55,512 nucleotides of DNA. Source: Chara braunii. Lineage: Eukaryota > Plantae > Charophyceae. The position numbers were made by a program, and so were the translations under genes. A model generated the notes under the pieces. It searched no databases and was not told where the DNA came from. It saw only the letters and a list, made by a program, of their open reading frames with translations. Below, one piece after another: positions 8,299 through 52,160 of the stretch; position 1 is the stretch's first letter, and each line of letters begins with the position of its first letter. The stretch is taken from assembly GCA_003427395.1 (NCBI GenBank), contig BFEA01000039.1, positions 3,081,152-3,136,663 of the forward strand. The letters are read 5' to 3'.

Positions 8299-8335
<37 letters not shown>

Positions 8336-26689: not shown

Positions 26690-27938
26690 CGAGTGGCACC
26701 TTGGTTCAGACCGAGCAAGTAGCATGGCACTCTTGGCCTAGCGTGCAAGAACAACTGGGCATGAAGCCAAAGGCGAGTAGAGGGGTGGAACCCTCTCTCT
26801 CTCCCTCCTCTCTCTTACTCCCTCGACCCCCTTTCTCCCAATGCCCGACCAGGCCTAAGCAACTCGCGCGAGTGCGGCCTGAAGTTCAATCGTGCAGCAG
26901 GAAATTAGCCATGGGGCGAAAAACTTGAGGCAGGGGGCTCGCAACTCGGGAGCGTGGCTAGCCTCGCAGCGAAAAAGCCTGTCGGGGTGCCGCTCCCAAT
27001 CCCCGAGATGTTTGTTGGGAGGGGCGTGTTAGTGAGAAGCTCATAACCAGAGAGTACGGATAGCAACTCATAGCCAGAGAGCGCTGTGAGAAGCTCGCTA
27101 TAAGAGAGTGTCACGAGAAGAGAGCAATACCCTCAGCAGCTCGAAAAAGAGGAGCTCGGAAAGTACGTGAGGTGCTCGTAATCGGAGAACGCAGTGAACA
27201 ACTCGTCACTTTAAAAGATCGTCACCCGGAAGCATCTTGAGTAGTTCATAATCCAGGAGCTCGTGATCAGAAAGTGCTGTCGAAAAACAGTCCGTCGGCT
27301 GAAAACTTCGTGGGATGCCCGTCGCCCGAAAATATCTTGAGCAGCTCGGAGTCGAGGAACTCGTGATCGGAAAGCGCTGCAACTAACTTGTACCCAGGAG
27401 ACGTAGGAGGAAACTCTCACCGAACGGCCGGGTCGGCGCAAGTACTCTGAAAGCCGACCCGAGCTGGGGCTCGAACACAGGCGCGAGGCCACAACCAGAG
27501 AAGCGACGACCTTCGCTCCTTCCTCCCCGCTTTCTCGACGTACTTGACCCGAGCGCCGACTTCTCTCGAGCCCACTACGGTTCGTGTGGCAAATCCCCTC
27601 CCACGATCGCAGGTTCTGAGCGCTCCCTGCCCCTCTCCCGCTTCCTGCCCCTCTCCCGCTTCCCACGTGCGTGTTCAGTGGAGGCCGACTGCCGTCGTGC
27701 CGAGCCAGTACTCTGTCTCTCTTTCTCTCTCACCCTTTCCTGCTCTGTCTCCCTCTCTCTTCCTCTCCCTCCCTTCTTTCGTGCGGCCTGGGCTATACAG
27801 CGATGGCGGTCGTTAGTACGTTCTGAGCGTTTCTCCGCACATCTTCGCCTCTTTCTCTCTCTCGTTTCTTGTGCGCAGCCTGCGATATCGAGCGCCGGCG
27901 GCCGTTGGTGCCTTCCGTGCGTTTCTCCGCATACCTTC

Positions 27939-28007
<69 letters not shown>

Positions 28008-28641
28008 TCGAGCGCCGGCCGCTAGCCGGTGTTCAGCTCTCCGAACTCTGAACCCCCGAGCGTCGTTGAGCTCGCCTTTGACGGCGTGAAGGCGTGCCAA
28101 CTCCTGTGAGCTAGCGATCGGATTGCGTGGACCCCCCCGTGCGTTGAATCTCCGATAGTGAGTCAGCTCGCTGGGACCTTCTCCACTTACGTGCGCCTCC
28201 CTTTTTTCTCACCCTCGTCCTTCCTTTATACTCCTTTTCTTTTCCCTAGCCTCTTCTAGATCAATCCTTCCTCTGCATTCCCCCTCCAATCACAGCGCCC
28301 GCAGGTTACTATCTGATTTTTGCTGAAAATTTCACCAAGCTCTGACCTTTTCCGCCTCCTTTCCCAATACATTGGCCTCTTCCCACTTTCCCGCCGAGCG
28401 AGTTCCTCCTCGATTCCTTCCCCCTCCGATTGATTTTTCTGCTTCGACCTCCCACCACGTTCAACTCTTTTCAAGAAACAGTTAGGTCCTCCTTTTCACA
28501 GCGCGGTTTCCAGTCTATCAACGTCCTACTGTGGCTTCGATCACTCTTCGCCTTGCTCTCCCCACCACCCCATCTTCGCTTTGCGGAAACGCTTGGACTC
28601 CGTCCGCGCAGCCTCTCGACCGATCTTTCTTCGAATCCCCC

Positions 28642-29198
28642 CCTCACCCCCATTAGATCCTTTCCGGATCCTCTGATCCCGACTCTTCCCCCATCGTGAT
28701 CTCCCCTCCTCACCTTGATCCTGCGGGTAACGGTTGGCCTTCTTGGCAGACCTCCCTTCCTCAAACGGTTGGCTTTCTTGGGCGGTGGTTCTTCAAAAAA
28801 AATGGTTGTAGCTCAGGCTTATCCCGCCGCACGTTCTTTGACCTTCAGCCGCCCTGCTCGTTGCAGCGCGCACCCTCCTCCTTGCTTGGTTTCCATTTCT
28901 CAATGCCGACACCGTCTCTCTCGTGTTACCGTCCATAGGATAGCTTCCAAAGGCGTTGGTCGATCTCCCCCACCGTGCGGCCTGTCGGCCGATCCTTCTT
29001 CGACTCCGCCCCCTCACCCCCATTAGATCGTTTCCAGATCCTTTGATCCCGACTCTTCCCCCATCGTGATCTCCCCTCCTCACCTTGATCCCGCGGGAAA
29101 CGGTTGGCCTTCTTGGCAGACCTCCCTTCCTCAAACGTTTGGCTTTCTTGGCCGATGGCTCTTCAAAAAACGGTTGTAGCTCAGGCTTATCCTGCCGC
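28642..29198. repeat. ~190 bp direct repeat (28642-28830 and 29011-29198)
   Basis: ccctcacccccattagatc...gtagctcaggcttatcc.gccgc occurs twice; the minus strand encodes DKPELQPFF..KKAxRLRKGGLPRRPTV. Confidence 0.9.
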
Positions 29199-29470
29199 GC
29201 GCCCGCCCGGTGCTCCATTGCACCCACCCGTCGTGGTTGGTGTCGCAGACCTCCCGATTTGTCCAGCCTCCCCAAGCCCCAACGACCAGCCCTGATGCCG
29301 GCCCAATGAGATCCATTCCCAGTAGATCACAGGCCCCGAGCCTGCCCACCGCCCTGGTTCAACCCCACCGCCCATGCGGTGATGACATCATTATTCTGGG
29401 CCCTGTTGCTCTGATCGGAGCAATCAGATAAGGCGGCGCCGCACCCTCGAGTCAGCCACAGGAAACGTCG

Positions 29471-29484
29471 CCCCTTTTATAGCC
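29471..29484 (-). promoter_or_regulatory. Candidate TATA box GGCTATAAAAGGGG
   Basis: Canonical TATAAAAG in a GC-rich context, upstream of the minus-strand ORFs at 28.5-29.4 kb. Confidence 0.35.
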
Positions 29485-30607
29485 AAGGATGATAGCCTCT
29501 AGGTCTGTGGTCCGATCATTCCGTCGAAGCGAAGAACTGACCTCTCTCTCCGGGCACACGCCCCCGAATCGCGTACCCCCGCACACAGTGGTTCCTTGGC
29601 CGCACTCATTCCCCCTCTGTTTCTATTGGGACCAACCCTGCGGCCGCCGTCTGCTGAGGATCACCCCTTTCCCCGGGCCTCGTCTCTTTCCGGCTTCTTC
29701 CCATAGTCCTAAGGTTAGCTGCGGTCAAAACAAAAACATGCGCCCTCGATACCCGACTTCCCGAGGAACTCCGCCTTCAGCCCCAAAGTCAGCCACTTTC
29801 TCGCTGCCCTCCATGAGCGGTGTCAAAATCTCAGATTTTTGGTCCGCTCGCGGCCCGCTCATGCCCTCGAGTCGACTGCCCTGTCCCTGCTTGTTCAAAC
29901 GTTAGTACAGATCAAGAAACCCTCGGACTCCCCCAGCAATCCCTCAGATCTCACACACCCAGGCATCAAAACATGCAAAGAAAGAAAACGTGGCAGAAAA
30001 AAAACCCGGTTCGTTGATTCAAGCGCCGCGGCTGGTAGACAGCCGCCTGACAATGTCTCCATTGCTGATATACTCATTGATCTGGGGCTGTTCGATTCCA
30101 GAATGACGCTGGCTGGTGCTGGGGTGTTGCCCTGTAACCTGCTGATGCAGGAGTGTGAGGCCTGATAGAGAGATCAGGGGATGATTTGGGATGGACATTC
30201 CAAGGGACAACCAAGGGTTGTTGCCAGGACGACGTTGGCCGGAGCTGGGGCGAGTCATGTTGCCCTGTAACGCAACAGGGTGGGGGTGTGAGGCCTGGAA
30301 GAGCTCGGCACGGAGTAAGACAGTGCTGGAGAGCTTTAGAAGGGTTGCTAGGGATCCACAGGGTTTTGAGCATTTGTAGGACCTCTGTGGTGGCATGCTT
30401 TTTTTGTGGGCATACTTTTTTTCTGTAGTTTGTCGTAGTAATTTTCTAAGTAGCTCAAAATTCTCTCAAAGTTCTCTCAGTCAAAGCCAGGCGGCCCTGG
30501 TATCTTAAACTTTCAAAATTTGATGTAAATTTCCATATGGGACGCTGGGCCCGGTTCCCAGCACATGCTGCTCCCCACAAACAGATTGGAGCCTTGTCCC
30601 CCGTCCN

Positions 30608-30695
<88 letters not shown>

Positions 30696-30802
30696 GCGCC
30701 GGCCGCTAGCTGGTATCGAGCTCTTCGAACTCCGAACTCCCGAGCGTCGTTGAGCTCGCCTCTGACGGCGCGAAGGCGTGCCAACTCCAGTGAGCTATCG
30801 AT

Positions 30803-32150
30803 CTGTTTTTTTTCCCGTTTTGATCCTTTTGCGACAGAAGCCCCCCCACGGAACTAGGTCCAGCGTCCGTAGCAACTATGAATGGTCGATTCTCCTCATC
30901 CTCGAAGAACGGAACCCCTAAGATCTGCCCTCCTTCACGAAATTCTTCTTTAAGAACCTCCATGGCCGCGGCCTGCTCGTCTCTTCAAATCCATCCCTTC
31001 AATTTTTTAAGCAGTCGTCTAAGAGGCTCCGTTTTCTCATTGTACGCTCTTATAAAGATCCTCCCATAGCCAACCACCCCTAGGAATTGCCTAACCTCCG
31101 TTATTGACTTTAGCGACGACGGCCAGGTCATCAATTTTTTCAATTTCCCGGGGTCGGGCCTCCGCCCATCCTTATCGCAGATGAAACTTAATATCTTGAT
31201 TAACGACACGCCCCAGCGACTCTTAGTTCCGCTCACCGTAAGGTTGGCGTCGTCTAATTTCACAAGGACATCCCTGACATCTCTCATGTGGTCTACTACA
31301 AACTTTCTTACCCCGGGGAAGACCTCTGTCTCATCCCGTTCAACCGGCCCCTTTATCGGGAAGTCATCTAGGAAGACCTCCACCTTCTCATGTATGAACT
31401 CTTAAGGACCGCAATCATGGCCCTTTGGAACACTCCCACGCTGTTCGTCCACCCCATTGGTACCACCATCATCTGGACCAGCCCTACAGGCGTATGCATG
31501 GCGGTCATGTGCCTATCTTGGTAGCCCAAGAGGATTTCATCATACCTCGAGAAAAGATCGCAAATCGAGTTGATTGAGCGACCTGTTGATCCTTCCGTGA
31601 GTAGATCTGCGTCAGGTATGGAACCTACATCCCTTATGGTGACAGCGTTGGTTCTATGGTGATTCTGAATCCACCTCAACTTGTTGTTACCACCCTTCCT
31701 CAGAAAGAACCATTTGTTGGAGTAGGCACTCTCACAGGGCTCTGCGACGAACGTTCTGATATTTTCCTTGATAAAGGTCACTATCTCCTCCTTTTCCTTT
31801 TGAGCGTACTTCTATTGGGGTCTATCTTTCCAGGGCACATGCGGAATCGTATGGATCCGGACAGGCTTAGCATACCTTGGGTCGATCCTCCCTCTTTCCG
31901 AGTCATCGACGGCAATGGCCTTATCGCAGCCCCTTAGGGTCATTGCTACGTACTCCTTCTCCTTCTCCATAAGGTTTCCATCCCCTATATCCATCGTGGC
32001 CAACCTATCGGCCGAAATTCTTTGCTCCTCGTTTTTTTTCCTTTTTCGGATGATATCGGCGATCTCCTCCTCCGATATCGAAGTTTCCCCCGTTCTATCC
32101 CGGCTGACCACAGCTGGTTTCACTTTTTTCGTCACGGTTTAATGCTTCTT
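30803..32150 (-). pseudogene. pol: E1 reverse transcriptase and start of RNase H
   Basis: YSNKWFFLRK..KLRWIQN, DLFSRYD, VPMGWTNSVGVFQRAM, catalytic VFLDD, EVRQFLGVVGY, RNase H start FIVATDAG; carries frameshifts and stops. Confidence 0.93.
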
Positions 32151-32161
32151 AATTCCGTCGG

Positions 32162-32940
32162 CTAGGGGGATTCCTCCAAAAAAGACAGTCTCACACATCC
32201 ACCAAACTCCTCTTCCTCGTCCTCCTTCTCGTACCCTATCCCGTTGATCACGACCCTGCCCCCGACATCCTCGATCTCTAACCGGTCCCCCGGGGGTTCC
32301 TCATTCGAAAAAGGTGTTTCTTCCAGACGGACTTGGCATACCCTCGACTGGGCCCTCTTCCGTCTAGGAATGTGGGTCCGGTTCTGCTCATCTTGCGCGT
32401 CCACGATCTTTAGGACCACCTGGATTTCATCCAGACTTTGGATTGAGATGGTCTGACTTCCATCAGGTAGGTCAACCGTGGTAGCGTGAACCGCGTTCAG
32501 CCAGGTCTTACCGAGGATCAAGTCGGAGGAACAATTTTTACCGAAAATATTGGGACCGATGCCTCGACGCCTGCGACCTCGATCACGGGGTTGTGACACA
32601 CTCCCTCTGCCGGTTGTAGCTTGTTATCTGCTACGACCATTGACATTGACACCCCCCTATCTATTTCCAATCCTAACTCCCGGGCAATGGAGTCCCTACA
32701 TACCGTGGATTCGGACCCATTGTCCACCAGAGCCTTCATCTTCTTCACGCTCACCACCGCTTGGAGCTAGCCGCTCCCTAATACGTAGAACTTTTTGACC
32801 TTCTCTCCTGAGAAGAAGTTTACCAGCAGCTCCTCCATGGTGATTCAGGAGGACTGCACTTCTTCCTTGGCTGGACCATCCCCCGGTACCGTGGGTCCTC
32901 CGACGGGCGGGATTCTCACTTTTTTCGTGATGCTTAAGAG
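32162..32940 (-). pseudogene. pol: E1 aspartic protease region
   Basis: KALVDNGSESTV (DxGS active-site motif) and, after a frameshift, DLILGKTWL. Confidence 0.88.
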
Positions 32941-35191
32941 TTATTTCCTAGCGCTTTTGCTGGCCGCCAAGTATTCCAGAAGCGTGCACTGCATAGGCTG
33001 CATCAGGGTCCTCCGTAGAGGAGCTACCGTGTCTATCTCATCCAAAGTGTATTTCATTTCGAACTTTTTCGCCCCCCTCTTCCTAGGCGATTTGGGTGAA
33101 GTGGGTTCCTCCTTCCTTTCCTCCGCACCTTTGGCATCGGTCATCGAATGGTCCGCCGCTTCTTCTTCCTCCATCTTCCGCCACGCTCTTTTTGCCTTTA
33201 GACATTTCGGCCCCAACCTGTGTTTTTACCCTTAGGCAAGGCCCCTCCTCTTCGGGTCGGGTCTCAACGAACTTGATGCTGGACACCTGGGGTTCCCTAA
33301 TGGACACACCTCCTGATGATTCTGTCATTTGGACATGGGAAAAGTTGGAGGTACCCCCAATCTCAGGCTTCTTCCCCAACCTCGCCTCCTCGAGGGCTAT
33401 CCTCTTGTCCACATTCACCTTCATTGAGGGATAGAAGGAGACTGTTTCCCCATCATCCCCCCAAACTACCAACTTATTTTCGTTTAATTTCACCACCCCT
33501 AATCTCAAGGCTTCCGTAAGGTAAGGGCATTCTCGTTTGAAATGACCCTCCTCATTACAGTAGACACACCCGCTTCGAGGCAGCGGGTTGTTAGGGCGGG
33601 GCGCGACTTGAGGTGGCGTTCCCATCGCCGCGGGAGGCTCAGGAGGCGGTGGCGTTCTAGCCTGACTCACCTCCGGCCGAGCACCCATGGCCCTAGGTTG
33701 GGGAGGGTCTCCCCACGTTCCATCCCTTGCATCTTTCCACCAGGAATTTCCCCATTCCGAGGCCTGATTACCTCCGGCCTCTCTATCGGCCCTCCAACTC
33801 ACTTGATTGTCGGGCTCGTTCCGCCAACCCGGGGGTCCTCCTCCCCAGCGCTGGGCGGGAGGCCCCGGAGGCTGCCTCTCGCTACTGCGAGGTCCGTCGC
33901 TCTTTTGGGAGCGCATACTCCGGAGTGCCATGTCTAGACTCTCCTTCATATATTCCCTTACGTCCACACCTCCCCCGGTGCAGACTACTTCGGCGACCCT
34001 TTCAAAATTTGCGGAATCCCTAGGGGCTTTTTCGAGGACCTCCCTCCTCTTTTCCTCGGGCAGGTGCAGCATGAACATTATGCACTTGTCGACCTCCGAA
34101 AGCATCCCTCTATCCACTAAGGTCTGGGACAAGCGTTTGAGCCGTCGGGTAAAGGCCACCAGGCTCTCTTGCTCTCCTCTCGTCACCCGACGTAGCCCCT
34201 CTATCATGGGGACCATATCGTCACACACAAAGATCCTAAGCAGGTTGCTTTTGAACATCTTCCCCCTTCCATCAGACCGGTACACGGCCCTAATGGCCTG
34301 GTCCAACTCCGGGTCCGAATGTTGAATGAAGTGATCGATCCACTCTTTCTCCGAAAACTTCTTACGGTAGGCATAACTCTCTCATTTCTCCACGAATCCA
34401 GTCACATCCCTTCCGTTAACGAAGAGCGACTCTAGCCCCAAGTTTACATCGTAGTAAGGGACTCGGCGATCGTCATATCGACGGAAGTAAGGTTCGTCTG
34501 CCGGCCCGTCTAGCACTGGATCGTAAGGTTTGTACCAGGACGGGTCCAAATCCTCCATTCGGGGTCGATATCCCGGAGGTCCACACGGTTCCTCCTCCCT
34601 GCGACCCCCATAATCCGGTTCCTCTCGTTCCCAGTACATGGACTCCGGGCCCCTTGCCCCTCTCTAGACATCTCCGGGTCCTCTCATATTTTTGCCTACT
34701 GCCTCTTCTCGTACCCAAGCGGGACCGACCTCCCTGCTCACCCATCTTCGCGGTCCTCCCCCAACTTCGGTTGGCCGTCCGTCCCCAAGTTCCCTCTTCC
34801 TCGGGCCACCCTCCTCGCTCCTCCTTGGTGCCCAGCACCCAGCCCTGTCATGAGGGCACTCTTGCCCCTCGCCAATTCTCTCTTCCATGTGGTCCGCCCA
34901 TCGGGTTTCGACGGGGAAGCCCCTTGTGGCTTCGGCCACCCTTTCTCTCACAGGGATACGCGATTCCATCTCCCGGTGCAAACGCTCATCCGAGCTTGCG
35001 CGTGGTTCCGTAGCTTTCTCCTCGATAGGTTCTTTCTGGCCTCTCAGGGCCCTGCCCATAGCCTCTAACCCTTCGGTCACCCCATCGGCCGTCTTGCTCA
35101 ACCTCGCCCCTAATTCGGCGTCTTCCTCGGCTCGCCCCATAGCGACGGTCTTTGGAGATTGGGCTACCCCGTGTTCCAGCACACTTTCCAT
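32941..35191 (-). pseudogene. gag: E1 Gag with CCHC zinc knuckle
   Basis: ORFs 34664-35296, 34382-34639 and 33083-34306 share one frame, broken by TAG and TGA; CVYCNEEGHFKREC knuckle; likely start MESVLEH (ATG 35191); frameshift near 33200 into the SPRKRGAKKF frame. Confidence 0.85.
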
Positions 35192-35199
35192 GCACCAGT

Positions 35200-36540
35200 T
35201 TTCAGTCGCTCTCCTCACTAGAGTCACTCCCTTGGCTGGTCGTTCCACTACTCTCCTCCGAGCCTCTTCCTTCTTCACTCTATCCTTGGGTTTCAATATC
35301 CCCTTCGAACTCCTCGCTAGTCATCGTCCACCAAGAGTCCCGCAATTTCTTCTCCTCGCTAGCGGCCAACGCAAGATTGGCAATCTCCAGGTCCGAGAAA
35401 CCCCTAATCCCTTCTTGCGCGCATCACCTAATAGGTCCCTATCTACTTTGCCGGGTTGTCCTGAGAACAGGGGTTTGATGAAAGCGCCTACCAAAGCCCA
35501 CCACTCAAAATCGGTGAGCTCTAGGGACTCCCAACACAGGGTGAATAGCTCGTGCCCCTTTTCTTCCCCCAAGGGAAATTTTTCAATTACTGGTTCTCTA
35601 ACTTGGACTTTCCTCACTGCGGCGATGTCGGGGTAAAGCAATCGGTAGACCCAAGCAGGGATCTCCCAGGTCCAGCCGTGGGCCGCCCGCGGGATCTCTA
35701 ACCACCCTCGGTATTCAATTTTTTCTCTCTCTCGTCTTCCTGCCTCTCCCCCTCTCAACCTTCTAAGTCGGTCTTGGGTTTTATCCGCTATACTTAGAGG
35801 ATCCTTCCCTTCCGCCAATTCCGTAGCAAAGAACTGTCTGTCGTCGGGAGACAAATAGATCTCCGCTCTTCGCGTGCGGGTACCGTCCTGCGAGACTATC
35901 GAGAAACGGACCAGTGTTTCTTGCCCGTATATTTCGAAGAATTATGTGGAGATCTACCCTTCTTCCTCAATTCTAGGGAGAGTCACTCCATACCTAGATC
36001 CCATTTTTCAGGCCCGTTGCAAGGTTCCTATAGGGTCCCCCCTTTCGTATGTAATGATTGGTCGGCTTACCCTACCCGAGCCAATATTTCCGCTCCCTCC
36101 ACGAGCAAGCTCTCGCACCTCCCTCGAGAGCCTTCGTCTTGCTCCCGTATCGTTCGACGTAACGCTTGTTCGTATTAACCTGTCCTATCCCAAAAACGCG
36201 CCTCCACTAGGTGCACCCTGGCCTCGAGTGGGTTCCCAAGCCACCTAGAGTCCTTCTTGAACCTTCCCTCGACTTCTGACAGCTCTCTCAACGTTCTAGA
36301 GAACCGTACTCCTCTTGCCCCCCTAATAGTGATCGAAAACCTCGCTAAGGTAGTCTCGGACCTCCTTTTCCACAGGGCCAGTCGCCGGACCTCGACGAGG
36401 AAGATCCTCTCGGCCCTAATCTCTTGGTCCTCTCCAAGGCCTCGACCGAGATCGGCTATCCCTACTACCTCGACTTTCGGGCCGTCGTCCCTTGTCTCCA
36501 ACTCCCAATCTATCGAGCTCGAGGTATAGGTAGCTCTCAT
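35200..36540 (-). pseudogene. E1 accessory ORF ('DGP' protein, unknown function)
   Basis: Made of ORFs 36175-36540 and 35321-35854 plus an acidic tail in another frame. DDGPKVEVV..RFSITIRGARGVRF resembles E2 GDGPLVLVI..KLWIGIEGGRRIKY. Confidence 0.55.
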
Positions 36541-36737
36541 GCCTCTCCTCCCCAGGAGAGTAACTCTTCTTTTAAGTCATCTAGTTCCTTGATCACGACA
36601 GCCTCTAACAACTTGATCCTCCGTAAGGCTCCTGGGCGCGCCCTTCTTTCCTCTTCCCATCAAAGGGCCAATATCCGATATAACTCTGCCCTAACCCTTT
36701 CTAAACCCACTAGTTCACCGATGTCGGGTTCACTCAT
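36537..36737 (-). pseudogene. E1 small helical accessory ORF (66 codons, one internal stop)
   Basis: MSEPDIGELVGLERVRAELYRILAL*WEEERRARPGALRRIKLLEAVVIKELDDLKEELLSWGGEA*; its TGA overlaps the next ATG (ATGA at 36537-36540). Confidence 0.55.
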
Positions 36738-36771
36738 GCCTCAAATTCCTCCGTCGGCACGCTATAGCTAT

Positions 36772-37476
36772 TCATATGAGATCCGACGGGTTTAACCCTT
36801 CTAACCCCGCCTCATAGATTTTGCCCAGGTATCGCAAGATGACGGTCGAGACCCTTACGTGTTGGCCCCAACCCTCAAAGGCGTAGCCCAGTCCCTCTAG
36901 CGAGGACCAATTACCCTCGTACGGACTTTGAAGGCACCAGGTCAATAGGGGATGCAGGTCCGACCTTGTGAACCGAAATTGGCGCAGGATCGCGATCCTA
37001 CGCTCTACCGCCTTCTGAACCGCTTCCGATGGATAAACTCGCTCAAGAATAAATCGAGAGACTCCGATGGGGTCACTATCGAAAAACCTAGGTATCTTTT
37101 CCTAACCTGCGTAGGTCACTCGGTAGACCCTAAGGTATTCTTCTCGAGGGCTAGCCTCTTCCACAAGCCTTTCTAAACGTTCTTGGACTGCCGGCACGTC
37201 CACAAGCGGGTCCTCCCTTAATTTTAAATTGCGGACTACCTCCAGAAAGCCTTCCTTAGAAAGGAACACTGTGGCTTCTCCAACTACCAACCCCTGTCTG
37301 CTGCTCACCGTCGCCCGGACAAATGTTCTCCCTCGGAGTATCTCCGCCACCTCCTTCCGAATGGACCTTGTCGGATCGCTCCGACTTTCCTTGGGCAAGG
37401 AGACTTGGACAACTTCCCCTTCCTTACTCACAGGTTCTATCGAGGCCCAAAGAGTCCCGGGAACCCCCCTTATCAT
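36772..37476 (-). pseudogene. E1 accessory family A copy 4 (one internal TAG at 37102)
   Basis: GRTFVRA..EATVFLSKEGF..RVTYAG*EKIPR..LHPLLTWCLQ; the frame continues to TGA at 36772. Confidence 0.7.
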
Positions 37477-37553
37477 CGGGCTTCGTAACCCCGCCGGTTA
37501 GCAACCTGCTCTTCCCCGAAGAGGCGGGCGTACGGGACGTCCGCGGCGTGAGC

Positions 37554-38198
37554 TCAGATCCTCCCAAACTCTCTCAATCTCCAGAATATAGTGGATAACT
37601 CCCCTCTTGGGGGAACCCCAGCATCCACGCACCACGTGTAGAGCCAGAACAATCCCCTAATCCGCACCCCGGATTCCCGAGCTGCTCTAAGTACTGCCAC
37701 TACTCTTTCCTCCGGGTCTCTTAAGAAGGAGTTTGTCAAGAATTGGGGTAAGCTCGCGTGGAGGATTCCGGACGCACGAGGGACCTCGCCGGGTTCGACG
37801 AAGGACACTTGTGACCACGACTCGAAAGTCCCTTCTTCGTAATCAACTAGCACCAGGTTCGTCGCTAACAGCCTCGCGGACTCACGGTACTCCGTATGGG
37901 TCTCTTGGGCTGTTACCAATCCTCTCCACACTTCAGCCCACGTTTCCTCGTTGAGGAAGATCGTAGCCTGAATCTCTGGGAATCGACCGAGGTCCGACGA
38001 ACCTCCTCTTTGCACTCCCTCCTTCCAAGTGAGCCTGCGAGCTCGAACCCACACGTAGGCCCCTTCTTGGATGACTCCGCCTTTCTCAACGCACATCCAG
38101 CAAGGAGTCACGCGAGGGTCTTCCGGAATCAAGACTTTACCCGCGTCACTAGCCTCTATTGCATCTACCGCCCCGTTTTCACTGAGCACAAATCTCAC
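37554..38198 (-). CDS. E1 accessory family A copy 3 (214 aa, start uncertain)
   Basis: EGAYVWVRA..QATIFLNEETW..EVPRASGILHASLPQF..GLFWLYTWCVDAGVPP. Confidence 0.72.
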   Translation of the reverse strand: MRFVLSENGAVDAIEASDAGKVLIPEDPRVTPCWMCVEKGGVIQEGAYVWVRARRLTWKEGVQRGGSSDLGRFPEIQATIFLNEETWAEVWRGLVTAQETHTEYRESARLLATNLVLVDYEEGTFESWSQVSFVEPGEVPRASGILHASLPQFLTNSFLRDPEERVVAVLRAARESGVRIRGLFWLYTWCVDAGVPPRGELSTIFWRLREFGRI

Positions 38199-38264
38199 AA
38201 TCTACCAACGTCATTTTGAAAACCCACCGGCGGTATCTTTCTGGTAAGAGAGTAAAGGGTTTTT

Positions 38265-38864
38265 CTAGGGCCCCCAATCTCCTAAAAATACCCAAAGCTT
38301 CCTACATGGAGGGATACCCTGATCGATGCAATGCGTGTACAGCGTCCACAGGGCTCCAAAGGCCAATCCCAAACTCCTTCCCCTCTCTAGGAGTCTCACC
38401 ACTCTTCCCTCACTCTCTCTCCAGAACACAAAGCTTGGGACCCACGTGGTCACAGGGTAACTTGCCCTCGGGATTTCGTCCGTCCTAGCGAATCTCTCCA
38501 CCTCTACCGCCAGAAATTCGAAGTCCTCTCGAACCCTATCTATCCATCTTCTTCGGACCCCTCTAGCTTCTCTTATCAACGAGTCCAGCCCACCCCCTTA
38601 ACCTAAGACCAGGGGTACGATAACCCTCGACCAAGATTCCGGCTTAACGAAGATGATCGAGGAGACGTTAAAACGCACCTCACCCGTTCTCTCCTCCTCT
38701 TCCTCCGACTCTATCCACACGAAATTTCCTTCTGTCGTAATTTTCCCTCCTTCTAATCTTCTTTAGTCGAGGATTCTCCCGTTGCTCGGGACCAAGCTAC
38801 ACACCCCTCGCTCGTCTAGAGAGGACTCAACAAAACCACGGACGCCCCGGTCAAATCGAACCAT
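38265..38864 (-). pseudogene. E1 accessory family A copy 2 (two internal TAA)
   Basis: ATG 38864 MVRFD..EGNFVWIE..SSIIFVKPESW..EIPRASYPVTTWVPSFVF..ALWTLYTHCIDQGIPP; in-frame TAA at 38763 and 38598. Confidence 0.72.
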
Positions 38865-38869
38865 TCATT

Positions 38870-39613
38870 CTAACCCACCTTTTGGTGGACTCCAAACACC
38901 CTTTGGTACCGGTAGTCTCGCCCTCCTTCACGGTCCCTCTCAGACTCCAGCGATATCCTCTCCCGGATCCATTCCGCTCTAACCCCGTGCAACACCGGGT
39001 TGTCCACGCAATAGGAGTAAAACCAGTGTAGTGAACGAAAGGACAAGCCTCTCCTTCTCTCCCGCCTTACAGATCTCACGACCTTTTCGTACGCGGTCCC
39101 TTCTCCACACACCCTCCTAAATACATAAGAAGGGAAGATCGCCTGGACGCAACCTGTAGCTCGAGGATATTCCTCGTCCCTGGTGCAAGTTACCCTCAGG
39201 CGGAAAGGCAGGCTATGCCAAAGGGGGACTTCTTCGAAGATCCACCTCAGGATAGGTCCCGCGCGCAACTCCCAGTGGTCTTCCTGATACCACCCTAAGG
39301 CCCAGTGAGTGACGAACTCGACCCACGCCTCCCGGCTTAGATAGACCGTGCCCTCGGCACGAACCGCTGCTCGTCGGGCCTTCCCCCCGCTCCTAGGTCT
39401 ATTCCTAGCCCACTGATCTCCTTCCCAAATACCCACTGCGAACCGTGCCCAGAGGAAGACCCCCTTTTCAAGTTTCACTCCTCTCTCGCGCCCCGCAAGG
39501 TATCTCTCTGTACGATGATCCAGAGGGACGCTAAAGCATTCGCGATCTTTGAGAAGGTCTGCCTTCTTGATTTTTACTCTGTCGTCCTCTCCCGCTTCCA
39601 CAATCCTAACCAT
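38870..39613 (-). CDS. E1 accessory family A copy 1 (intact 247 aa, unknown function)
   Basis: MVRIVE..EKGVFLWAR..EGTVYLSREAW..EYPRATGCVQAIFPSYVF..SLHWFYSYCVD. Confidence 0.75.
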   Translation of the reverse strand: MVRIVEAGEDDRVKIKKADLLKDRECFSVPLDHRTERYLAGRERGVKLEKGVFLWARFAVGIWEGDQWARNRPRSGGKARRAAVRAEGTVYLSREAWVEFVTHWALGWYQEDHWELRAGPILRWIFEEVPLWHSLPFRLRVTCTRDEEYPRATGCVQAIFPSYVFRRVCGEGTAYEKVVRSVRRERRRGLSFRSLHWFYSYCVDNPVLHGVRAEWIRERISLESERDREGGRDYRYQRVFGVHQKVG

Positions 39614-39662
39614 GCCCCCCCTGGCTTCGTACCACCTTCTTAACGATCTCTATCAATACCTT

Positions 39663-39980
39663 TCACCCGTCGGACCCGTTGAGGTAGGGTTCCGGTATGA
39701 TCGAGGCCGGTCGCTCACCTCTTCGGTAGGTATGGTAACCTAGAGTATAGAAATACTGGGTCTCGTAGGCCCCCAGAAGTTCCTTCTCCAATTGCGCGAC
39801 GCCAACAGCCTCCTCCCAACTACTAAGAAAGCCTTGTCCTCGATCCGTTCCCTCTTCAACGTAGAGGGCGATGTCCCAATCCCCGGTCCACAGGAAGAAC
39901 CTGTAGCACAACACGTCTACTCCCCCACAGTCACCCATGTTGATGCCCCATGGCTCAAACTCAAAAACCCCTAAGCTCAT
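39663..39980 (-). CDS. E1 accessory family B copy 1
   Basis: MSLGVFEFEP..GGVDVLCYRFFLWTGDWDIALYVEEG..YFYTLGYHTYRRGERPASIIPEPYLNG; the TGA at 39663 is probably premature (W in the paralogs). Confidence 0.72.
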   Translation of the reverse strand: MSLGVFEFEPWGINMGDCGGVDVLCYRFFLWTGDWDIALYVEEGTDRGQGFLSSWEEAVGVAQLEKELLGAYETQYFYTLGYHTYRRGERPASIIPEPYLNGSDG

Positions 39981-40337
39981 ATGTTCTCCACTATCTTCTC
40001 TATGACCGACAAACACTCTCCACCCATCTCACCCATCCAGATAAGCTTCCGGTATAACCGGGGCGGGTCGCTCCCCTCGTCGAAAGGTGCGGCACCCCAG
40101 AGTATAGAAATACCGGATCCCGTACCCTCATAAAAGCTCCCTCTCTAGTTGTGCTTGGCCAACCGCTTCTTCCCAACTATTCAGGAAGGCTTCCCCTCGG
40201 TCAGTCCCTTCTTCCACGTAAAGTGTTATATCGAAATCTCATGTCCATAGGTAAAAGTTGTAGCACCACACGTTTACACCACCACGGTTCCCCACGCTAA
40301 TGCCTGCAGGTTCAAACTCTAGAATCCCCAAGCTCAT
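39977..40337 (-). pseudogene. E1 accessory family B copy 2
   Basis: MSLGILEFEP..GGVNVWCYNFYLWT*DFDITLYVEEG..YFYTLGCRTFRRGERPAPVIPEAYLDG; has stops and frameshifts. Confidence 0.75.
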
Positions 40338-40670
40338 AGGCACCCCACTATTTCTTCTATAATTGCTACTAATACTCTCCAGTCGTCTGACCCGTCGAGA
40401 TAGGCATCCGGAATCACCGGCGCAGGTCGGCCGCCCCTAGGGTAAGTTCGGTACCCTAAGGAGTAGAAGTAACTGAATCCGTACCCTCGCAGCTCACCTC
40501 TAGCCCCACGGGAGTCGTTGACCGTCGCCCCCCAATCCGCGGAGGAAATTCTCTCACTGGTCTTGCCCCTTTTCTACATAGAGGGCCACATCAAAGTCTC
40601 CCGTCCAGAGGCGGAAGGTATAGCACCACACGTCGACCCCACCGTAGCTTCTTACACGAATCCATTCCAG
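40334..40670 (-). pseudogene. E1 accessory family B copy 3, 5'-truncated by the E2 insertion
   Basis: GGVDVWCYTFRLWTGDFDVALYVEKG..YFYSLGYRTYPRGGRPAPVIPDAYLDGSDDWRVLVAIIEEIVGCL*. Confidence 0.75.
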
Positions 40671-41218
40671 TGTGGGGAAACCCAGGGAGGGGTACCTGCT
40701 GTTCGCTGAATCCAGGGGGTACAAGGCCTGTCACTTCATTGCCCCCACTTCAGAGGTCCTCAGTGGCCAGCTGGAACTTTTAGAAGTAGCAGACTCCCTA
40801 CAGAGCTTAGTTTGCTGCCCCGGTCATGATCGAGAATTTCAGAGGGTTCTAATAGCAAAATTTGGATACCTCTAAGTTCAAAGCCCACAACGAGGAAAAC
40901 CATGAACATGCGTTAGTACATTAATCATGCTTTGTTCTTGCATTCGATCTCTCTGTCTCCTCTCACGATACCATGTTCGTGAGCAGCCCTCCACCAATAG
41001 TCCTTCAGCATGTAGTAAGGTAGATATCTTTTTACTTCGTACGTTACCCGAATTCAACTTGACGATTCTTCTCTCGACTCAACTTACAAAGGCAGGGGGG
41101 GTTGATAGAAAAAGAAATGTATGTTCACTCTCAGTCCTTCGTTTGCCCGGACTCCAGCCTATACAGGGAGCGAGGGGATGTAATGCAGAATGCCGCTCAG
41201 GTCTGGTTTCGGGCTCAC
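40671..41218 (-). repeat. E2 3' LTR (verifiable part; the LTR continues rightward, end not determined)
   Basis: Begins TG on the plus strand; matches 54965-55512 with about 15 substitutions in 548 bp. Confidence 0.93.
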
Positions 41219-43409
41219 ATCAAGAATGATGCGAGGTTCATGTCTTCTCAAAACGGACAATGAATTTAACCGAGATGGGCTTACCGCTCTAGCGTGCGCG
41301 ATCTGAAGGGAAAACTGTTCACAATGAAAGGTAAGCCTCTCGACTATCCGTCCCTGAAATGTCGCACAACACTCCCTTCTCCCACAGTCAAATAAAAGCA
41401 GGACACAAGAACAGACTGGAGAACGTTACTCCTTCACTCCTTCTAGAGTTTGCAGGACACACACAGAGAGACAGGCAAGTAACTGCCAATCAAGAGTTGA
41501 ATTCAACTGTATTCAAGAATTCATCCGACATGTATGCGCAAAAGCTGAACGTTGCAGTTCACACAAAGAGAGGAAAGGAACGAGTAAACGCCGAACACAA
41601 AATAGCAGTGAACACAGTCCGAACGAGCAACGCTCTCCCTCTCGCTGTCCTCCTATCCCCTTGTTTCTCTTTTTTCCTCTACATCTCCCTCTTGCGGTTT
41701 TCACTTACCCTTAGTCTAATTAATGCAGGACACAAAAAAAAACAGTCGGGTACTGTCTGCTCACCCCCCCTTTTGTCCTCGTCCCTTCTCTCGTGCTCGC
41801 TGCCTCACGTACACGGCGATCGCATAGAGTATTCCCTTTGAAGCTTCTAACTCACTCTCCCTGTGCCGGGAGGTCCAGAAGAGACCAGGCGAAGAGTCGA
41901 TCCAGCAAGAAGCAAGCTCGACATTTCCCGCCCTCGAGCTTAGCGAAATAAACAATGATATCTTCAACGAGACTCCCCATCAGCGGACCCAGTCAGCATT
42001 TGAGGGGTCAGTCCCTTGCTACAAGTTTACAGGATAGACAGCGGATCAGTTCCACCTAGTTACTCTCTCCATCTCGATGTCACTCAGTTGCGTGACTTCC
42101 GAACGGAAGGTCTAAGCGAAGGTTCTAATTCGGTTGAAAGAGCGATACCCACGAAAGCCCAGCCCTTCTTATCTCGGCGGGTTATAGGATACCACAAATA
42201 CCTCTAATCGTGCTTTCTCCAGCCCGATGTCGTTCGTACCTGAGATGAAATGAGAAACTCTTCACCTCGCGGGACCCGTGATCCCTCAGTAGCGAGATNG
42301 ACNTAACAAGCAGTCAAGAAAAACGGAAGCCTGAGCACCCTTCGACGANGGTGAAGGTTCACTGNGACTGTTCAAGGGCTGCCGGCGTCAACGGACTCGC
42401 TTAGCTCGTGCCTTCTCTTCTCTTCTCTATGGAGCATGTTCTTACAGCGGCTCTAATTCACACAGAGGTCTTCGGAGGCTTACCNCCCACACGTGTCGCG
42501 CTCTCCGACTTTCCCCCTCCCTCTCTTTCACTCCCTCTCCTTCTCCCTTTTCGCTCGCCTGCATCCCACCGCAGGATACCGCTGGCACACTCTCCTTCGA
42601 GCACGCCCGGACGCACATGAAGGCTCACGCATACTCGAATGCTCGGGATCGCGGCACAGGGGCGCTTGTTCACAAGCACGCTTATCACAAGTCTGCAGAG
42701 TGTGTGCGGTGTTCGCCTAGCTCGATTCACAACCGCGTGGACCCAGACGCATCCCCTTCCGAAGGCCTGGCACACCGTGCTCGTCTCCCCTTCTCTCCGC
42801 CTGCATTCCGCTACGAAGTGCGCTGGGTACACCGTGCATGCTCCCCTCTGCAACCGTCCGTATCCCCTATGTAGCCTTCGGTACGCCCGGCTCATGCTGT
42901 TCTCCGGACATGTACGACGTGGCTGAGTGTTCTCCCCCGTCTGCCCCAATCGCCTGGCGACCCAGTAGGCTATGCACTCGCGATATTAACCGAGCCCGTA
43001 TCTCACAGCGATTCCGGCCCGGTACATGGGGACTCAGTCTCCTGATAATTGTATCCTTGGCCTCTGTGTCAACATTCTCCCTCCTGGTACCTCCACACGG
43101 CCCCGCAACGTACGACTGCGGATCGTGGGCTGAATTCAGTCCCGTTCCAAAATGTCCACTTCCGACTGGGTCAGGGGCCTGTACCTGTGTCCCAAAAAAA
43201 AGAAATTCTGCGGTCAACCACGACCTCAGTTCTTCACCAGACTTGACATAACCATTTCAAAATTTCCCAGTCGTCGGCGTTGTCAATAGCCGGACCAAAG
43301 CTAGAGTGATACTTGTTGACACCGCGGCAATTTCTGGCCTGAGACCACGCAGATGCTTGTGACATTTCAACGTCGTACCAATGCAGGGTCTGGAGCGTGC
43401 CGATGCAGA

Positions 43410-44070
43410 CCCAAGACCGAGCCTGAAAATGATGCCGCGGNGTGTACCACGCCAATGNCAAACCAANACCGTACCTGAAACATGTCGAACACNGNAAGAT
43501 GCAGCGGCNCGGTAATAGTACCGACCCTGAAGTAAATCGCCNCAATGATCCCGGACCTGAGAATAAGCTNCCACAATGGTACCGAACCTGGAATAAACTG
43601 CCGCCAAGGTCTCGAATCTGAAATGAANTACCNCAGTCGTCCCAGACCTNAAAATAAATCACTGTAGAGGTTCCGAACCTGAAATAAATCGTCANNGTGG
43701 TCCCGGACCTGAAAATAAGTCACCCCAGAGGTTNCGAACCTGAAATAATTCGCCGTGAGGGCGTCGAACATGAAACGAAACACCGCGATACCACCGAACC
43801 CGACCAAACCCGAAATCCAATACCGGGCTGCTGTGCCACGCAGATGCCGAACCCATACAACCGTGCCATGATAATTTCGTACCTGTCCCGAACCTGATAT
43901 ACAGTGCCGCAACGTTTCCGGGCCTGAAACAAGCTGTCGCCAAGGTTCCAAACCTGGAACAATTGTCGTAGTGGCCCCGGCCCTGAAAATAAATCACCGC
44001 AGCTGTCCCAAACCTGACAATAAGTCACCGTAGTGAAACAACTGTCACCGGGCCCATACCGAACCTGGAG
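43410..44070. repeat. ~30 bp minisatellite with core CCGRACCTGAAATAA
   Basis: Cores at ~43521, 43551, 43582, 43612, 43642, 43673, 43702, 43734, 43888, 43918, 43948, 43977, 44008; many N bases. Confidence 0.85.
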
Positions 44071-45084
44071 CACGTTAGACACCACAGGACGTATCCACTC
44101 CGTAACAATCCTCGTATCCGTACCGAACCAAACACCATACTGTCGACCCAAGGTAGCACCACGCCAGGCTGTCCATGCGACTCCCGCTCTCAGAACATCC
44201 CGACTGTGGTAATGTTAGTAATCAAGCAAACCAGAGAAAGCGACGCAGGGAACCTCGACCATTGGAAGTAGTGAAAACTGTTAAAATCCGGGGAAAATGA
44301 TCAATCTGGGGTCAGAGCTGAAGGCGGGTAATCGAGGTGAAATTAGACCAATCTCCCAATAGTCATGGGTTCTTGTCCCTTTCATCGTTTTTAATCATTC
44401 TCCCCTTTTCTTAATTCTATTGTCGGAAATAGTAAAGTAACCGTAAGTTCCCCAATATTAAGTTCCGAGAAGGCTTAAATGAATGGTCAAATTCCTTTTG
44501 TTTCTTTTCTCTTTCACCATTTTAAAACTTTTTCTATGTTTTTAATTCCATTGCCAGGAACATAAAATAACAAGGGTATTCCCCCTATAATTAAATGCCA
44601 TGAAAAATAAAGACATTAAGGGATATTATGTTTTTTCCTTCTCCCCTACTGGTCTTAATCCCTTTTCCCCATCTTTAATTATGGTACTAAAATAGACAAA
44701 AATTTGAGGCCTCATTTCGGCCCTGGTCGTATGCTGCAAAAACGTTACGGCGAGGTCTGTTCCCACGATGCCTCTCCGCGGCAGACCGATCCGGGTCCAA
44801 CCCTCTAAACGGCCGGAAATGACGGTCTCCTGATAAGCCGAGTGCGCCCACCCATCTCGCTATCTTTGAGGGCTACTCGTAAGGTTCAGTGCGCTCAAAA
44901 TCTGGGGTGTCCTGAGTTCCCCATATCTTTGTTGCTTGGTCAACCCGGAGTACCGTCAAAACGCGGACTTGTCCTTGAGCCTAAGACCCAAAACCGCAGA
45001 TTTCAGGCGGCGCACTGCTTGTGGCCGCCTGACAGTTAGCCCGGACCACTTCTCGACGCCCCCATCGAGCCCTACCCACTTACG

Positions 45085-48000
45085 TCAGACGAAGCGGACA
45101 AGCTTCAGGGTGATGGCCCGTAAAGGTCGCCCACGTCGGCGTTCAATTGTCTTATGTTTCAGTTTGTGATGAGTCATGAGGCTAAGAAGATTCTTCTTGA
45201 CTTTCCTGTTCCTGCTGGTTTTTGGCCTCGGCACGATCCTCTTTTTCTTCTGTCTTTGCCCTGAGGAGGGTGCCGACCCGCCAGTACGTCTAACGCGAAC
45301 TCTCTGTCTAGCCCTCTTGAGCACGAATAACCATTTCTTCTCTCTTCCTAAAGCTAACCCTTTGACCTTTCTTTTCTCTATTATTTTTCTCTTCTTGGAA
45401 TTCTCCCCTGCCTCGAATCGTCTCAAGGGGGCTCCATCCTCCATTTTGGCTTTTCCTTTCCCTTTCGGGATTGTCAGCGATAAGGTGGGTCCAGGTCTGG
45501 GTTTAAACAACTTTAATCTTGCACCCGCCACAGGGTCCTTCCACTTGGATCCGTCTAATTCTGCTATCATATATGCACCACAGTCGAGCGCCTCAACCAC
45601 TCTGTAAGGTCCCATCCATCTATTGGCGAGTTTTCCGGTCCAGGTCCTCTCCAGTGTTGCGCCGTAGAGAAGGACCATATCTCCTACGCTCACCCTCTCT
45701 CTCCTGATCCGCACGCTCTTATCCCATCTCTCTTTACCTTTGTCTCTTTCCACTGTCAGACGATCTGCCGCTGTCATAAGGTTGTCTTCCAAACCGTAGG
45801 CTATTTGTCTTGTTCGGGCAGCTATGAGTTCCTCCCTGGACATCTCCTCCGCCCAGTCGACATTTGTCCAGCTGTTGACGTGAAACTCTATGGGGAGCGC
45901 CCGCTTCCGCGGCGAAAGAATAACCTCCTCTTCATCGATCCGTTGTCCGTCCTTCTCCGCCATCACGTAATCCGTGTCAGTCTTCTTCGATGTAGATCCT
46001 CTCGCCAACTTGGTGGCTGCCACCCTTATGGGTGTGGTCGCCATATCCCCCTCAAAAGTTATCTTGATGCTCTGGCTCCTGACCGACTCCTTTCCTTTAC
46101 TCGGCTTTACTCTCCTTGCTTCGACATTCTCCTTCATCGAAGGGGACATCCATACATCTCTCAGATCATCTGCCCACTTGACGTACTTGCGGTCGTCAAG
46201 CACGACAAGTCCCTCATCTATTGCCCGTTGGAGGTCCGGGCAATCTCTCTTGATATGATCATCTCCTCTACAGTAGACGCAAGAGTTTCTGGGAGTGGGT
46301 GGCCTGTCGTCTGTGCCTCTGAAGGTCGAACCTCTCGCTGCTCTGGGGTCAGGGGACTTCGGATACGGATCAGACGACGCGCCATATCCCCCTCTCTCAT
46401 TCCTGCCGCGTGAATCATTGCGGTGGTCTCCGTGTTCGTATCGCCCGCGTGAATCATCGCGTCGGTTTCCTCGGTCGTATCGCCCGCGTGAATCATCACG
46501 TCGGTCTCCTCGGTCGTACCGCCCGTGTGAATCATCACGTCGGTCTCCTCAGTCGTATTGCCCACGTGAATCATCACGTCGGTCTGCTCGGTCGTACCGC
46601 CCGTGTGAATCATCACGTCGGTCTCCTCGGTCGTATCACCCTCGTGAATCATCGGGTCGATCTCCTCTCTCATATCTATCGCCCCTGTATCCGTCTCGAT
46701 CCGACCTGTCATATCTGTCGTCTCTATGTCCATCGTGGTCCGATCTCTTATATCTGCCGTCCCTATGTCCATCTCGGTCCGATCTCGCATATCTACCATC
46801 CCTGTATCCGTCTCGCCGGCCCTGATCCGACTCCCATCGGCCTCGAGAGTCGCCTCTACCCCCGTCAGGCTCATAGCGAGGGCTACGCGAAAAATCATCC
46901 AGCCTCCTGGCTCGCCCATACGTCTCGCGAGCTCTGCGGTCCTGGTCTATCTCATCATCCCTACGTCGCCATGGCTCGTCGTCTCTCTCCCTCTCCGTCG
47001 CACGATAATCAGTCAGCGTTCGAGGATTTCTATCCTCGACACTCCTCCAGGAATCAGTGTTCCTCTGGTCCCAGCGAAGTGAATAGGGTCCTCCGGGCTT
47101 GTCCCGGTATGTCGTGGCTCTTGTGGTGGTCACAATCTTTGTAACTTGTCTTGTCAATCCCTTTACCATGTCCCTTATCTCCTTCACTTCCTCGGCGACG
47201 GCTTCATTTTTCTCCGACCAGGGATAGTCCTTGAAATCAGGACATCTATCAGTGGCATACTTCTTGTAGAAAGAGAAGTCAAGTCTCCTCATCCCTCTCT
47301 ACACCAAGTCCTTGTAGTCGTCTGCCTCTGCCTTTATTGCAAGCTTTAGGACTTCTGGGAAGTCAAGCTTGTCGCGCGAAAGATTTCTAAGTATACTTTT
47401 TTGTCTTCCCTTGGACAGGTGTCCGATGAAGATAGTACAGCGCTTGGCCTCTGAGATCTTCCCCTTTTTCATCAGCACATCGGAGATCTTCTGGAAACGC
47501 ATCCCAAATGCCCGTACGCTCTCATCTTCATCTTGAGTAATTGTCTCAAGGTCCTTGATGGAGTACTTGTTATCCTCCAATTTGTAAAGCTCAACGAGAT
47601 TCTTTTTATACGTAGTCCATTTTTCATCCTTCGGTCGAGCTTCCTTAACTTCCTTACCGAGACTTGGGTCCATATTAAATACGAAGTTCTCTATAATCTC
47701 TTCCTCCGACCACTGACTCCGGCTAGCGTGAAGCTCTCACTTCTCCAGATATTCTGTAATGCCATAGCCCCTGAAAGTAGGAGGCTCTGAGGCCTTATGC
47801 GTAATAATATAGCGATCCTTGCTCTCGTAAGGGAGTGGGTGTGATTCCCCCGTTTGGGGGTTGAAGACACGCCGCGGCGGTGCTCTATCTCTATCTTTGT
47901 CCCTCCAATAGGAGTCCCTCGAACTCTTTCGCCAGTCGTCCCTGTGCTTATCCGCCATGGTTTCCCTCCGCTCATACTCGGGGGAGCGTCGTCTCGTCGC

Positions 48001-48255
48001 TTCTCGTCGGCCGCTCGAGGTTGCTGTCTTCAGAGCCTCCTGCGGTTCTGTCACGACCGGCTCGCCCATTACGTCGGGCTCTCTGTCGTTGGTTTGGTCA
48101 GCCCATCTCAACGGTGCTTCCCGCCTAATTCGTTCCTTCAGATCCCTCAGAGCTCTGTCGGGCGATGTCATGTACTCCTCCCCCACTTCACCCGTGGTTG
48201 GTTGTGGCCCCATCGCGTCTGGTTCCATAGGACACTTGAAGACGGAGTTGGGCAC
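45085..48255 (-). pseudogene. gag: E2 Gag fused in frame to integrase C-terminus (PR, RT, RH and INT core deleted)
   Basis: ORFs 47737-48255, 47299-47673, 46636-47292 and 45085-46203 share one frame with about four internal stops. CVYCRGDDHIKRDC at ~46240-46281; SPRKR|ALPIEF junction at ~45900; KLANRWMGPYRVVE GPY motif. Confidence 0.87.
46410..46810 (-). repeat. Coding tandem repeats in E2 gag (39 bp units RYDRGDRRDDSRG, then 30 bp units DRYDRSDRDG)
   Basis: cgcccgygtgaatcatcacgtcggtctcctcggtcgta is repeated about six times. Confidence 0.92.
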
Positions 48256-48341
48256 TCTCGCCAGGTGTTACAGCCCGGACCTATGACAGTTGCTGCAGCC
48301 CGGACCAGTTTCCTTGTCACGGTTCACCTTCATCACCAACC

Positions 48342-49260
48342 CTAGCTCTCGGCTGCCCTGATCACCACCACCAGTACTCGGTTCCGGTCGCGGATCTCGT
48401 GCTCTCCTTCTACCCCAAGAATCCCTGTGTCTAGGTAAACCTCTCTTTTGGGATCGGTCAACAAGGCCGCGCCTCTCCGGATCTGCAGTACACCCGTGAT
48501 AGGATCTCTACTCCTGTGGCAGATCGCGGTCCCAAGCCTAATCAGTGTCTCCTGATCAGCACCCCTCAAGAGCCTCCGAGCGTCTATCTCTGTCCTCCTT
48601 GCTAGGTCTCCCAGCCCGTCCTGAATCGGGCAGCTCTCTAAAGGAGGAAGCTCCCCTCCTACTGCCATCCAAAATCGTTCATCGACCTTTCTAGCTTCCA
48701 CTATCCTTCCAAGAGCTTTCAATCTCTATTTCATCTCTTTTAACTCCCAGACGGCTATGAGGTCATATGTCTAGCACCTAAGGTAAGTCGGTGCTATAAC
48801 CACTCGTAACCTCATCGCCGACAGCTCGAATATGTCATAGAATGTCTCAAAATCCTCCTCATCTCCACTATCCTCTATGGCATCTAAAGTCTTTATCGAT
48901 TCCCTCCAGTACCGATCGTGAGCGGCTAGCACCCTGAGTATCGCACCGTCTGTTACAACTCTCCCTAACTCTCCAGCTTTCTTGGCTTCGCTTATCTTCA
49001 ACCTCTCAGCCTCTCTGGTCGTCTTGTACCATGCCCTTATCCGAGACTGCCCTTCGAAAGATGTCACTCGGAGTACATATTTTATCCTTCGTCCTCCTTC
49101 TATTCCAATCCAAAGTTTTGTCCCCCTTGCCTCACGCAGCGCACGGCGGACACACTCTGCCTCCTCAACTATGCACAGTCTGGTATGGAGCTGGAGCTCT
49201 ACGATCACTAACACCAACGGTCCGTCCCCCTCATGTCCTATCGCTACCTCCCTGCGTTAC
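48342..49260 (-). pseudogene. E2 accessory ORF ('DGP' protein)
   Basis: 48771-49217 and 48342-48722 share a frame across premature stops; GDGPLVLVIV motif; same position before gag as E1 35200-36540. Confidence 0.6.
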
Positions 49261-49290
49261 CTTGTCCTCCGTTGTCTCGCCCTCTGCAGA

Positions 49291-49551
49291 TCACTCCCTA
49301 GTTCCTTCACGTGATACACTTCTAGCCTTTACCCTCTCCAGAAAGTCTGATCTCCACGCCTGGATAATCTCTCTTTCATCCCTAAACAGACTCTCTAGCT
49401 TTCTCGTCACGAGCTCAGCCCTACGCAACTTGCCCTCATCCTGGCACGACCAGATCTCCCTTAACTTGTTCCCCAACTCCTTTACCCGGTTCAAGAGTGA
49501 CTCTTTAATGCGCTCTCTCACTCTTTCGACTGCCTCACTCTCCTCTTCCAT
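49291..49551 (-). CDS. E2 small coiled-coil-like accessory ORF (86 aa)
   Basis: E/R/K-rich helical sequence; ATG lies 2 nt after an upstream TGA; same position as E1 36537-36737. Confidence 0.55.
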   Translation of the reverse strand: MEEESEAVERVRERIKESLLNRVKELGNKLREIWSCQDEGKLRRAELVTRKLESLFRDEREIIQAWRSDFLERVKARSVSREGTRE

Positions 49552-49553
49552 AC

Positions 49554-50613: not shown

Positions 50614-50685
50614 CTCCCCTCCGACTCTCGATCAGCATCACTCTACTCCCTCCGACGCACCCTATTTCTCGACGTTGCTAACTCC

Positions 50686-50978: not shown

Positions 50979-50980
50979 CT

Positions 50981-52099: not shown

Positions 52100-52160
52100 T
52101 ATCGGCCGATATCATCAGCTAAGCTCACTCAACCGCCGCCCTAATGTGCTCCTCTGCCTC

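Follow-up and report, generated by a model that had tools for sequence, protein, structure and literature searches.

What are the crowded, same-strand open reading frames (ORFs) that stand ahead of gag in two large retrotransposons of the alga Chara braunii, and what might they do for the elements that carry them? Extra ORFs are common in plant long terminal repeat (LTR) retrotransposons, Gypsy elements among them; an element typically has just one or two, and the cited passages portray them as heterogeneous and mostly unexplained (PMC6317226, PMC7264820). We analysed a window of 55,512 nucleotides from contig BFEA01000039.1 and, with a probability of roughly 95%, take one of its ORF families, family A, to be a set of tandem accessory genes placed ahead of gag in large Chara Ty3/Gypsy elements. 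Position, homology, open frames in other copies, separate duplication, retention under purifying selection and the gain or loss of a single gene (B2) are established below. On function we are more tentative: a putative counter-silencing role is the likeliest reading of the sequences, ahead of all its rivals, though it falls short of even odds.

By its sequence organization, the window from about 30700 to its end is made up of two minus-strand Ty3/Gypsy elements, with E2 nested in E1, because the downstream LTR of E2 interrupts an ORF of the E1 leader. Profile matches place the E1 core at 30709–35320 (minus strand), comprising pre-gag/gag with a zinc knuckle, a protease-like region, reverse transcriptase and the start of RNase H, within which the element is truncated near 30710; a Pfam scan recovered zf-CCHC, RVT_1 and RT_RNaseH in Gypsy order. 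For E2, the Pfam scan gave Retrotrans_gag and an SH3_Tf2-1-like tail, and the stretch at 45088–48267 (minus strand) fuses gag, near 45900, with what remains of the integrase C terminus (SH3-like); the window copy has lost pol at this point, where reads of other copies run on. Most of these Pfam scores lie slightly below the curated cut-offs because the frames are broken, and the integrase core was found, among the sequences scanned, in related gene models only. An LTR pair, a primer binding site (PBS)-like sequence and a purine tract are all present around E2. One LTR sits in the family C array of E1 (40671–41764, minus strand), its outer end placed by the purine tract just upstream; the other (54965–55512, minus strand; 97% identical over 548 bp) runs past the window edge. 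The PBS-like sequence (54950–54960, minus strand), presumably of the tRNA-Asp type, begins with TGG and is separated from the LTR end by 4 nt. No E1 LTRs were found in the window.

Repeats of other kinds also occur in the window. A 39-bp tandem repeat in E2 gag (46391–46702, minus strand) encodes an RDD/RGR-rich stretch, and the E2 3′ region holds an array of imperfect 61–91-bp repeats with many N (43400–44200). TC-microsatellite-bearing repeats at 27940–28119 and 30624–30803, 92% identical, lie where E1 pol is cut (region 27757–30803). Long degenerate inverted repeats with subterminal repeats, at 6665–9314 and 21123–23654 and thus about 12–17 kb apart, are probably a large DNA transposon. Gypsy-like repeats of 20–30 kb are reportedly mentioned in the C. 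braunii genome paper.

All eight family A copies are minus-strand and stand 5′ of gag, in gag sense, five in E1 (A1–A5) and three in E2 (B1–B3), and seven of them are broken. The open copy, A1 (38870–39613), encodes a basic protein of 247 aa with a pI of 9.7. Beginning 5 nt past its stop, A2 (38265–38864) contains two in-frame TAA stops and has relatives at 57–59% (P0017 and P0019); A3 (37554–38201), with a relative at 70% (P0027), keeps a 215-aa frame free of stops and lacks a start ATG; A4 (36772–37476) has one in-frame TAG; and A5 (about 35430–36058) is interrupted by stops close to its start and by a frameshift towards its end. In E2, B1 (52161–53177) carries two TAG stops and an acidic tail, B2 (50981–52084) one TGA stop and an acidic tail with five GW/WG dipeptides, and B3 (49866–50613), the most divergent copy, is frameshifted and has no acidic tail. 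The initial annotation had counted seven copies, four in E1 and three in E2; all of these exist, and A5, which resembles A4 at z 17.6 (0 of 300 shuffles as high), had been missed. The ordered motif blocks that it described hold loosely, as A4 lacks the W of block 1 and B1, B2 and B3 the final W of block 2. Its view that a QLIE-type block and acidic tails are additions of the E2 copies fails for B3, which has neither, and for the relatives of A5, which do end in an acidic tail.

Family A shares the leaders with other ORFs. A second tandem family, family C (39663–40670, minus strand), consists of three 357-bp units of 119 aa, the third cut by the E2 LTR; C1 and C2 are 69% identical in amino acids, and family C has no Pfam or PHROG match and is unrelated to family A. 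Two further unrelated ORFs lie between A4 and A5 (36175–36743, minus strand), one of which, of 121 aa, shares 60% identity with a portion of gene model P0019. More minus-strand leader ORFs are present in E2 at 48345–49860 and 50717–50986. Those scanned had no Pfam match, and none scores with the family A hidden Markov model (HMM).

About ten same-strand ORFs precede gag in E1 (35300–40670, minus strand), a polycistron-like layout that is unusual in a eukaryote. With gag behind so many ORFs, which share one orientation and are spaced by only 5–80 nt, its expression would have to rely on splicing, internal promoters or re-initiation, and family A might regulate the element's own expression, for example by exporting the long unspliced RNA or by promoting translation re-initiation along the leader. 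The caulimovirus transactivator offers a precedent, as does CERV, which acts in RNA export according to the cited excerpt (PMC10309623). One factor would do for such a task, however, leaving three to five old paralogues and a second duplicated family unexplained, and net charge is not conserved across family A; we consider this role possible, yet improbable.

Do the copies form one family? Pairwise comparison is clear for A1–A2, A1–A3, A2–A3, A4–A5 and B1–B2 (z 9.9–22.3, 0 of 300 shuffles). Between E1 and E2 copies, window sequences taken alone give a weak signal (pairwise z ≤2.9; profile–profile probability 8.4%, E 0.004). In a leave-one-paralogue-out profile test, all eight copies nevertheless pass at 22.0–60.3 bits against shuffle maxima of 4.9–10.5, and none of eight other leader ORFs exceeds 1.6 in the same scoring. 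The link becomes firm because a third Gypsy lineage, T, bridges both: an HMM built from T sequences alone, whose rows were originally found with a mixed E1 and E2 profile, recovers all eight window copies at 11.0–31.8 bits (best of 987 decoys, 7.2), and hhalign joins E1 to T and E2 to T at 97% each. Compared directly, E1 and E2 copies do not reach significance.

The HMM search suggested earlier, here a ten-row profile run against 1.84 billion representative proteins, returned 25 matches. Eighteen are named gene models, all of C. braunii, as are the further named relatives from other searches; the remainder are nameless (P0002, P0027 and P0030) or entries whose names were not looked up (P0015, P0016, P0018 and P0031). 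Seven of the 25 are spliced gene models of the T lineage, with four paralogue types, and in the longer of these the paralogues stand ahead of gag-pol; two more form a fourth group, Q. Open B1-type (338 aa) and B2-type (367 aa) genes are annotated elsewhere in the C. braunii genome (ten C. braunii matches in one search). Family A has no match in Pfam, PHROG, NCBIfam or PDB sequences, in agreement with the original description of an unrecognized family borne by transposable elements (TEs), and no account of it was among the papers listed by literature searches. It is apparently undescribed and, so far, limited to Chara, where three Gypsy lineages at the least, and probably a fourth, have retained it; their gag genes are only about 22–30% alike.

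Several observations bear on how the arrays arose. First, in two trees the five E1 copies form one clade (99/96; 98/95), as do B1 and B2 (100/98; 100/99); support for the T clade is lower (90/83; 55/89), and B3 has no firm placement. Second, approximately unbiased (AU) tests reject groupings of A1 with B1, B2 or T2 (p 0.0003–0.003); a single clade uniting the E2 copies is not rejected (p 0.26). These results bear out the earlier suggestion of separate expansions in the E1 and E2 lineages, as support and not proof, given that long branches meet. Third, the paralogues are 26–43% identical, and all six paralogue pairs have saturated dS, dN of 0.57–0.89 (E1 versus E2 gag, 0.72) and best-kept second codon positions. 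Saturated dS together with surviving frames and motifs indicates that the copies are old and held by purifying selection.

The broken state of seven window copies, and the lack of B2 from some E2 copies, would suit non-functional passengers that were duplicated by template switching and are drifting. This explanation is largely refuted and now very improbable: ordered motifs and full-length frames persist at saturated dS, the C1–C2 pair of family C combines a dN of 0.17 with a dS of 1.68, open family A versions occur elsewhere in the genome, and in this copy gag and pol are disrupted as well, as decay after insertion predicts. Nor do the data bear out the rapid diversification and arms race originally proposed. 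Against one gene model, which may join different copies, A2 is 57% identical, compared with 76% for the capsid and 72% for the protease, and family A evolves about twice as fast as gag; relaxed selection explains this as well as an arms race does, and the dN/dS analysis of paralogue pairs did not show positive selection.

Sequencing reads reveal how the genes vary among copies. Contigs that match the window exactly have a depth of 10–14 in DNA run X1, whereas summed depth reaches 281–894 over the E1 array and 14,000–88,000 over most of E2, which is not a copy number but shows that both are repeats, E2 by far the larger. Over B2, depth in X1 drops to 1,224–1,723, a few percent of its neighbours, and read joints in run X2 skip the gene (50726–52117 and 50934–52123). 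Some E2 copies lack B2 outright, and in the rest it may be missing too or be less than 85% alike; those E2 subfamilies that are most abundant do well without B2 or with such a diverged copy. The LTR and adjacent 3′ region (40671–42200) have a summed depth of only 47–119 in X1, against tens of thousands in the E2 interior (44300–52300), and may reflect an uncommon kind of LTR joined to a highly repeated interior, or else one more nested element.

RNA reads do not establish that family A is expressed. Of the 315 reads that RNA run X6 places on E1, 220 are less than 90% alike. First mates on the plus strand outnumber those on the minus strand in 22 of the 26 interior bins, a bias that would match the ORF sense provided that the library was made by the usual stranded protocol. 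The 2,387 RNA reads on E2 fall about equally on both strands and track DNA depth, as DNA carry-over would.

What kind of protein does family A encode? A structure model of one relative (pLDDT 80) has an alpha/beta domain followed by a helical domain, its C-terminal part (162–246) being all helix. A search of a structure library with the model returned no significant match; the best-ranked entry, below noise level, was the N-terminal domain of phage chimallin, and the matches listed include neither a MAIN-like nor a PC4/Whirly/PUR fold. Most conserved positions hold prolines, glycines or aromatics; neither Cys nor His is conserved, and a single acidic position is broadly kept. A basic nuclear localization signal-like pattern is absent from all 13 paralogue types, and no conserved transmembrane segment was found (peak 19-residue hydropathy ≤1.24 in 11 types and 1.89 in two). 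We rejected an env-like identity for family A, as the copies lie 5′ of gag and not between pol and the 3′ LTR and have no such segment.

These features weigh on what the proteins might bind. Three consecutive strands and then a helix, present in both models, make an arrangement that we take to resemble the PC4 motif, and A1 and one T-lineage type are strongly basic, as a single-stranded nucleic-acid binder of the PC4/Whirly/PUR kind could be. Net charge across the 13 types ranges from +13 to −15, however, with net negative cores in nine, and the conserved basic residues amount to two partly kept arginines; such a spread is more readily explained by protein partners than by a single surface for nucleic acids, and we judge a PC4-like role unlikely. 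Somewhat less unlikely is self-assembly, as homo- or hetero-oligomers, into a scaffold, inclusion or shell around element RNA or DNA. One version of this, a chimallin counterpart whose shell or lattice of paralogues hides element RNA or cDNA from small-RNA silencing, with an Argonaute decoy tail on one subunit, we hold to be highly improbable. Chimallin has a GNAT-like C-terminal domain of about 350 residues in the cited passage (PMC9365700), whereas the corresponding part of the family A model is helical, family A proteins are about a third to half as long, and the match is below significance.

One feature of the sequences points at silencing, the GW/WG tail of B2, in one of the eight paralogues. 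B2-type tails carry an excess of these dipeptides in all eight copies compared (3–7 per tail, p 0.0008–0.023), although the p-values are not independent, as the relatives are near-identical and the tail has an internal repeat; none of six B1-type tails is enriched. From its composition, the B2 tail is probably a disordered, Argonaute-hook-like region. In the cited passages, a Pol V-like subunit with AGO hooks exists in C. braunii (PMC11194755), viral suppressors use WG/GW motifs against AGO1 (PMC6563293), and in Arabidopsis TE accessory proteins show faster evolution and a larger number of predicted host partners (PMC13547354). Under a counter-silencing role, family A proteins would be made from the element as soluble, non-enzymatic, protein-binding molecules with two predicted domains (alpha/beta and helical), acting in trans. 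They would bind host chromatin or small-RNA factors and blunt host silencing of the element, each paralogue covering a different partner, with the acidic tail of B2 serving as a putative Argonaute decoy. Weighing against this role are the confinement of the GW/WG signal to a single paralogue, the low read depth over B2, the missing nuclear localization signal-like pattern, the lack of a positive-selection signal and the broken state of seven window copies.

The extra ORF of Ogre elements has a 5′ position, between the 5′ LTR and gag. Similar to that of Ogre/Tat (REXdb class eORF-5′F), family A provides an extra sense ORF kept across copies of a large, non-chromovirus-like Gypsy element (PMC6317226, PMC6431247), sharing the PBS-to-gag position, the gag strand and retention in many copies. 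By contrast, Ogre has one or two extra ORFs in the cited account (PMC6431247) and the Chara leader about ten, three to five of them paralogous; and where Ogre ORF1, Athila ORF1 and the Retand aORF carry a PF10536 (plant mobile domain), PF03078 or PF04195 domain, none of these was detected at E 0.1 in the window pieces or at E 0.01 in 24 relatives. VANC of VANDAL/MuDR elements is likewise a TE-encoded, lineage-specific and fast-evolving accessory protein (PMC13547354), a functional analogy only: VANC is MAIN-like, dicot-specific and carried by a DNA transposon, and family A has neither sequence similarity to it nor a shown target motif. B2 shares a repeated-GW/WG tail with the ipomovirus and WSMV P1 suppressors and the NRPE1 platform (PMC6563293, PMC11194755); its folded core is unrelated to theirs, any AGO binding by it is putative, and it is the one Chara paralogue so equipped. 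Burro, a planarian giant Gypsy element, and Cer1, with CERV, are also Gypsy-type elements enlarged by accessory coding (PMC6431247, PMC10309623); Burro has recognizable host-like domains mostly within one polyprotein (PMC6431247) and CERV is a single spliced gene (PMC10309623), and neither is described in those passages as a tandem paralogue array.

Accessory ORFs of this general kind are known, and it is the tandem paralogue layout that is unusual, with one family repeatedly re-expanded into arrays that resemble those of accessory genes in large viruses. A confident model without a significant structural match makes the predicted protein a candidate new fold. One of the carrier families is very abundant in the genome, and the existence of open copies alongside subfamilies missing one gene makes it possible to test directly, in an alga closely related to land plants, how accessory genes contribute to the success of retrotransposons.
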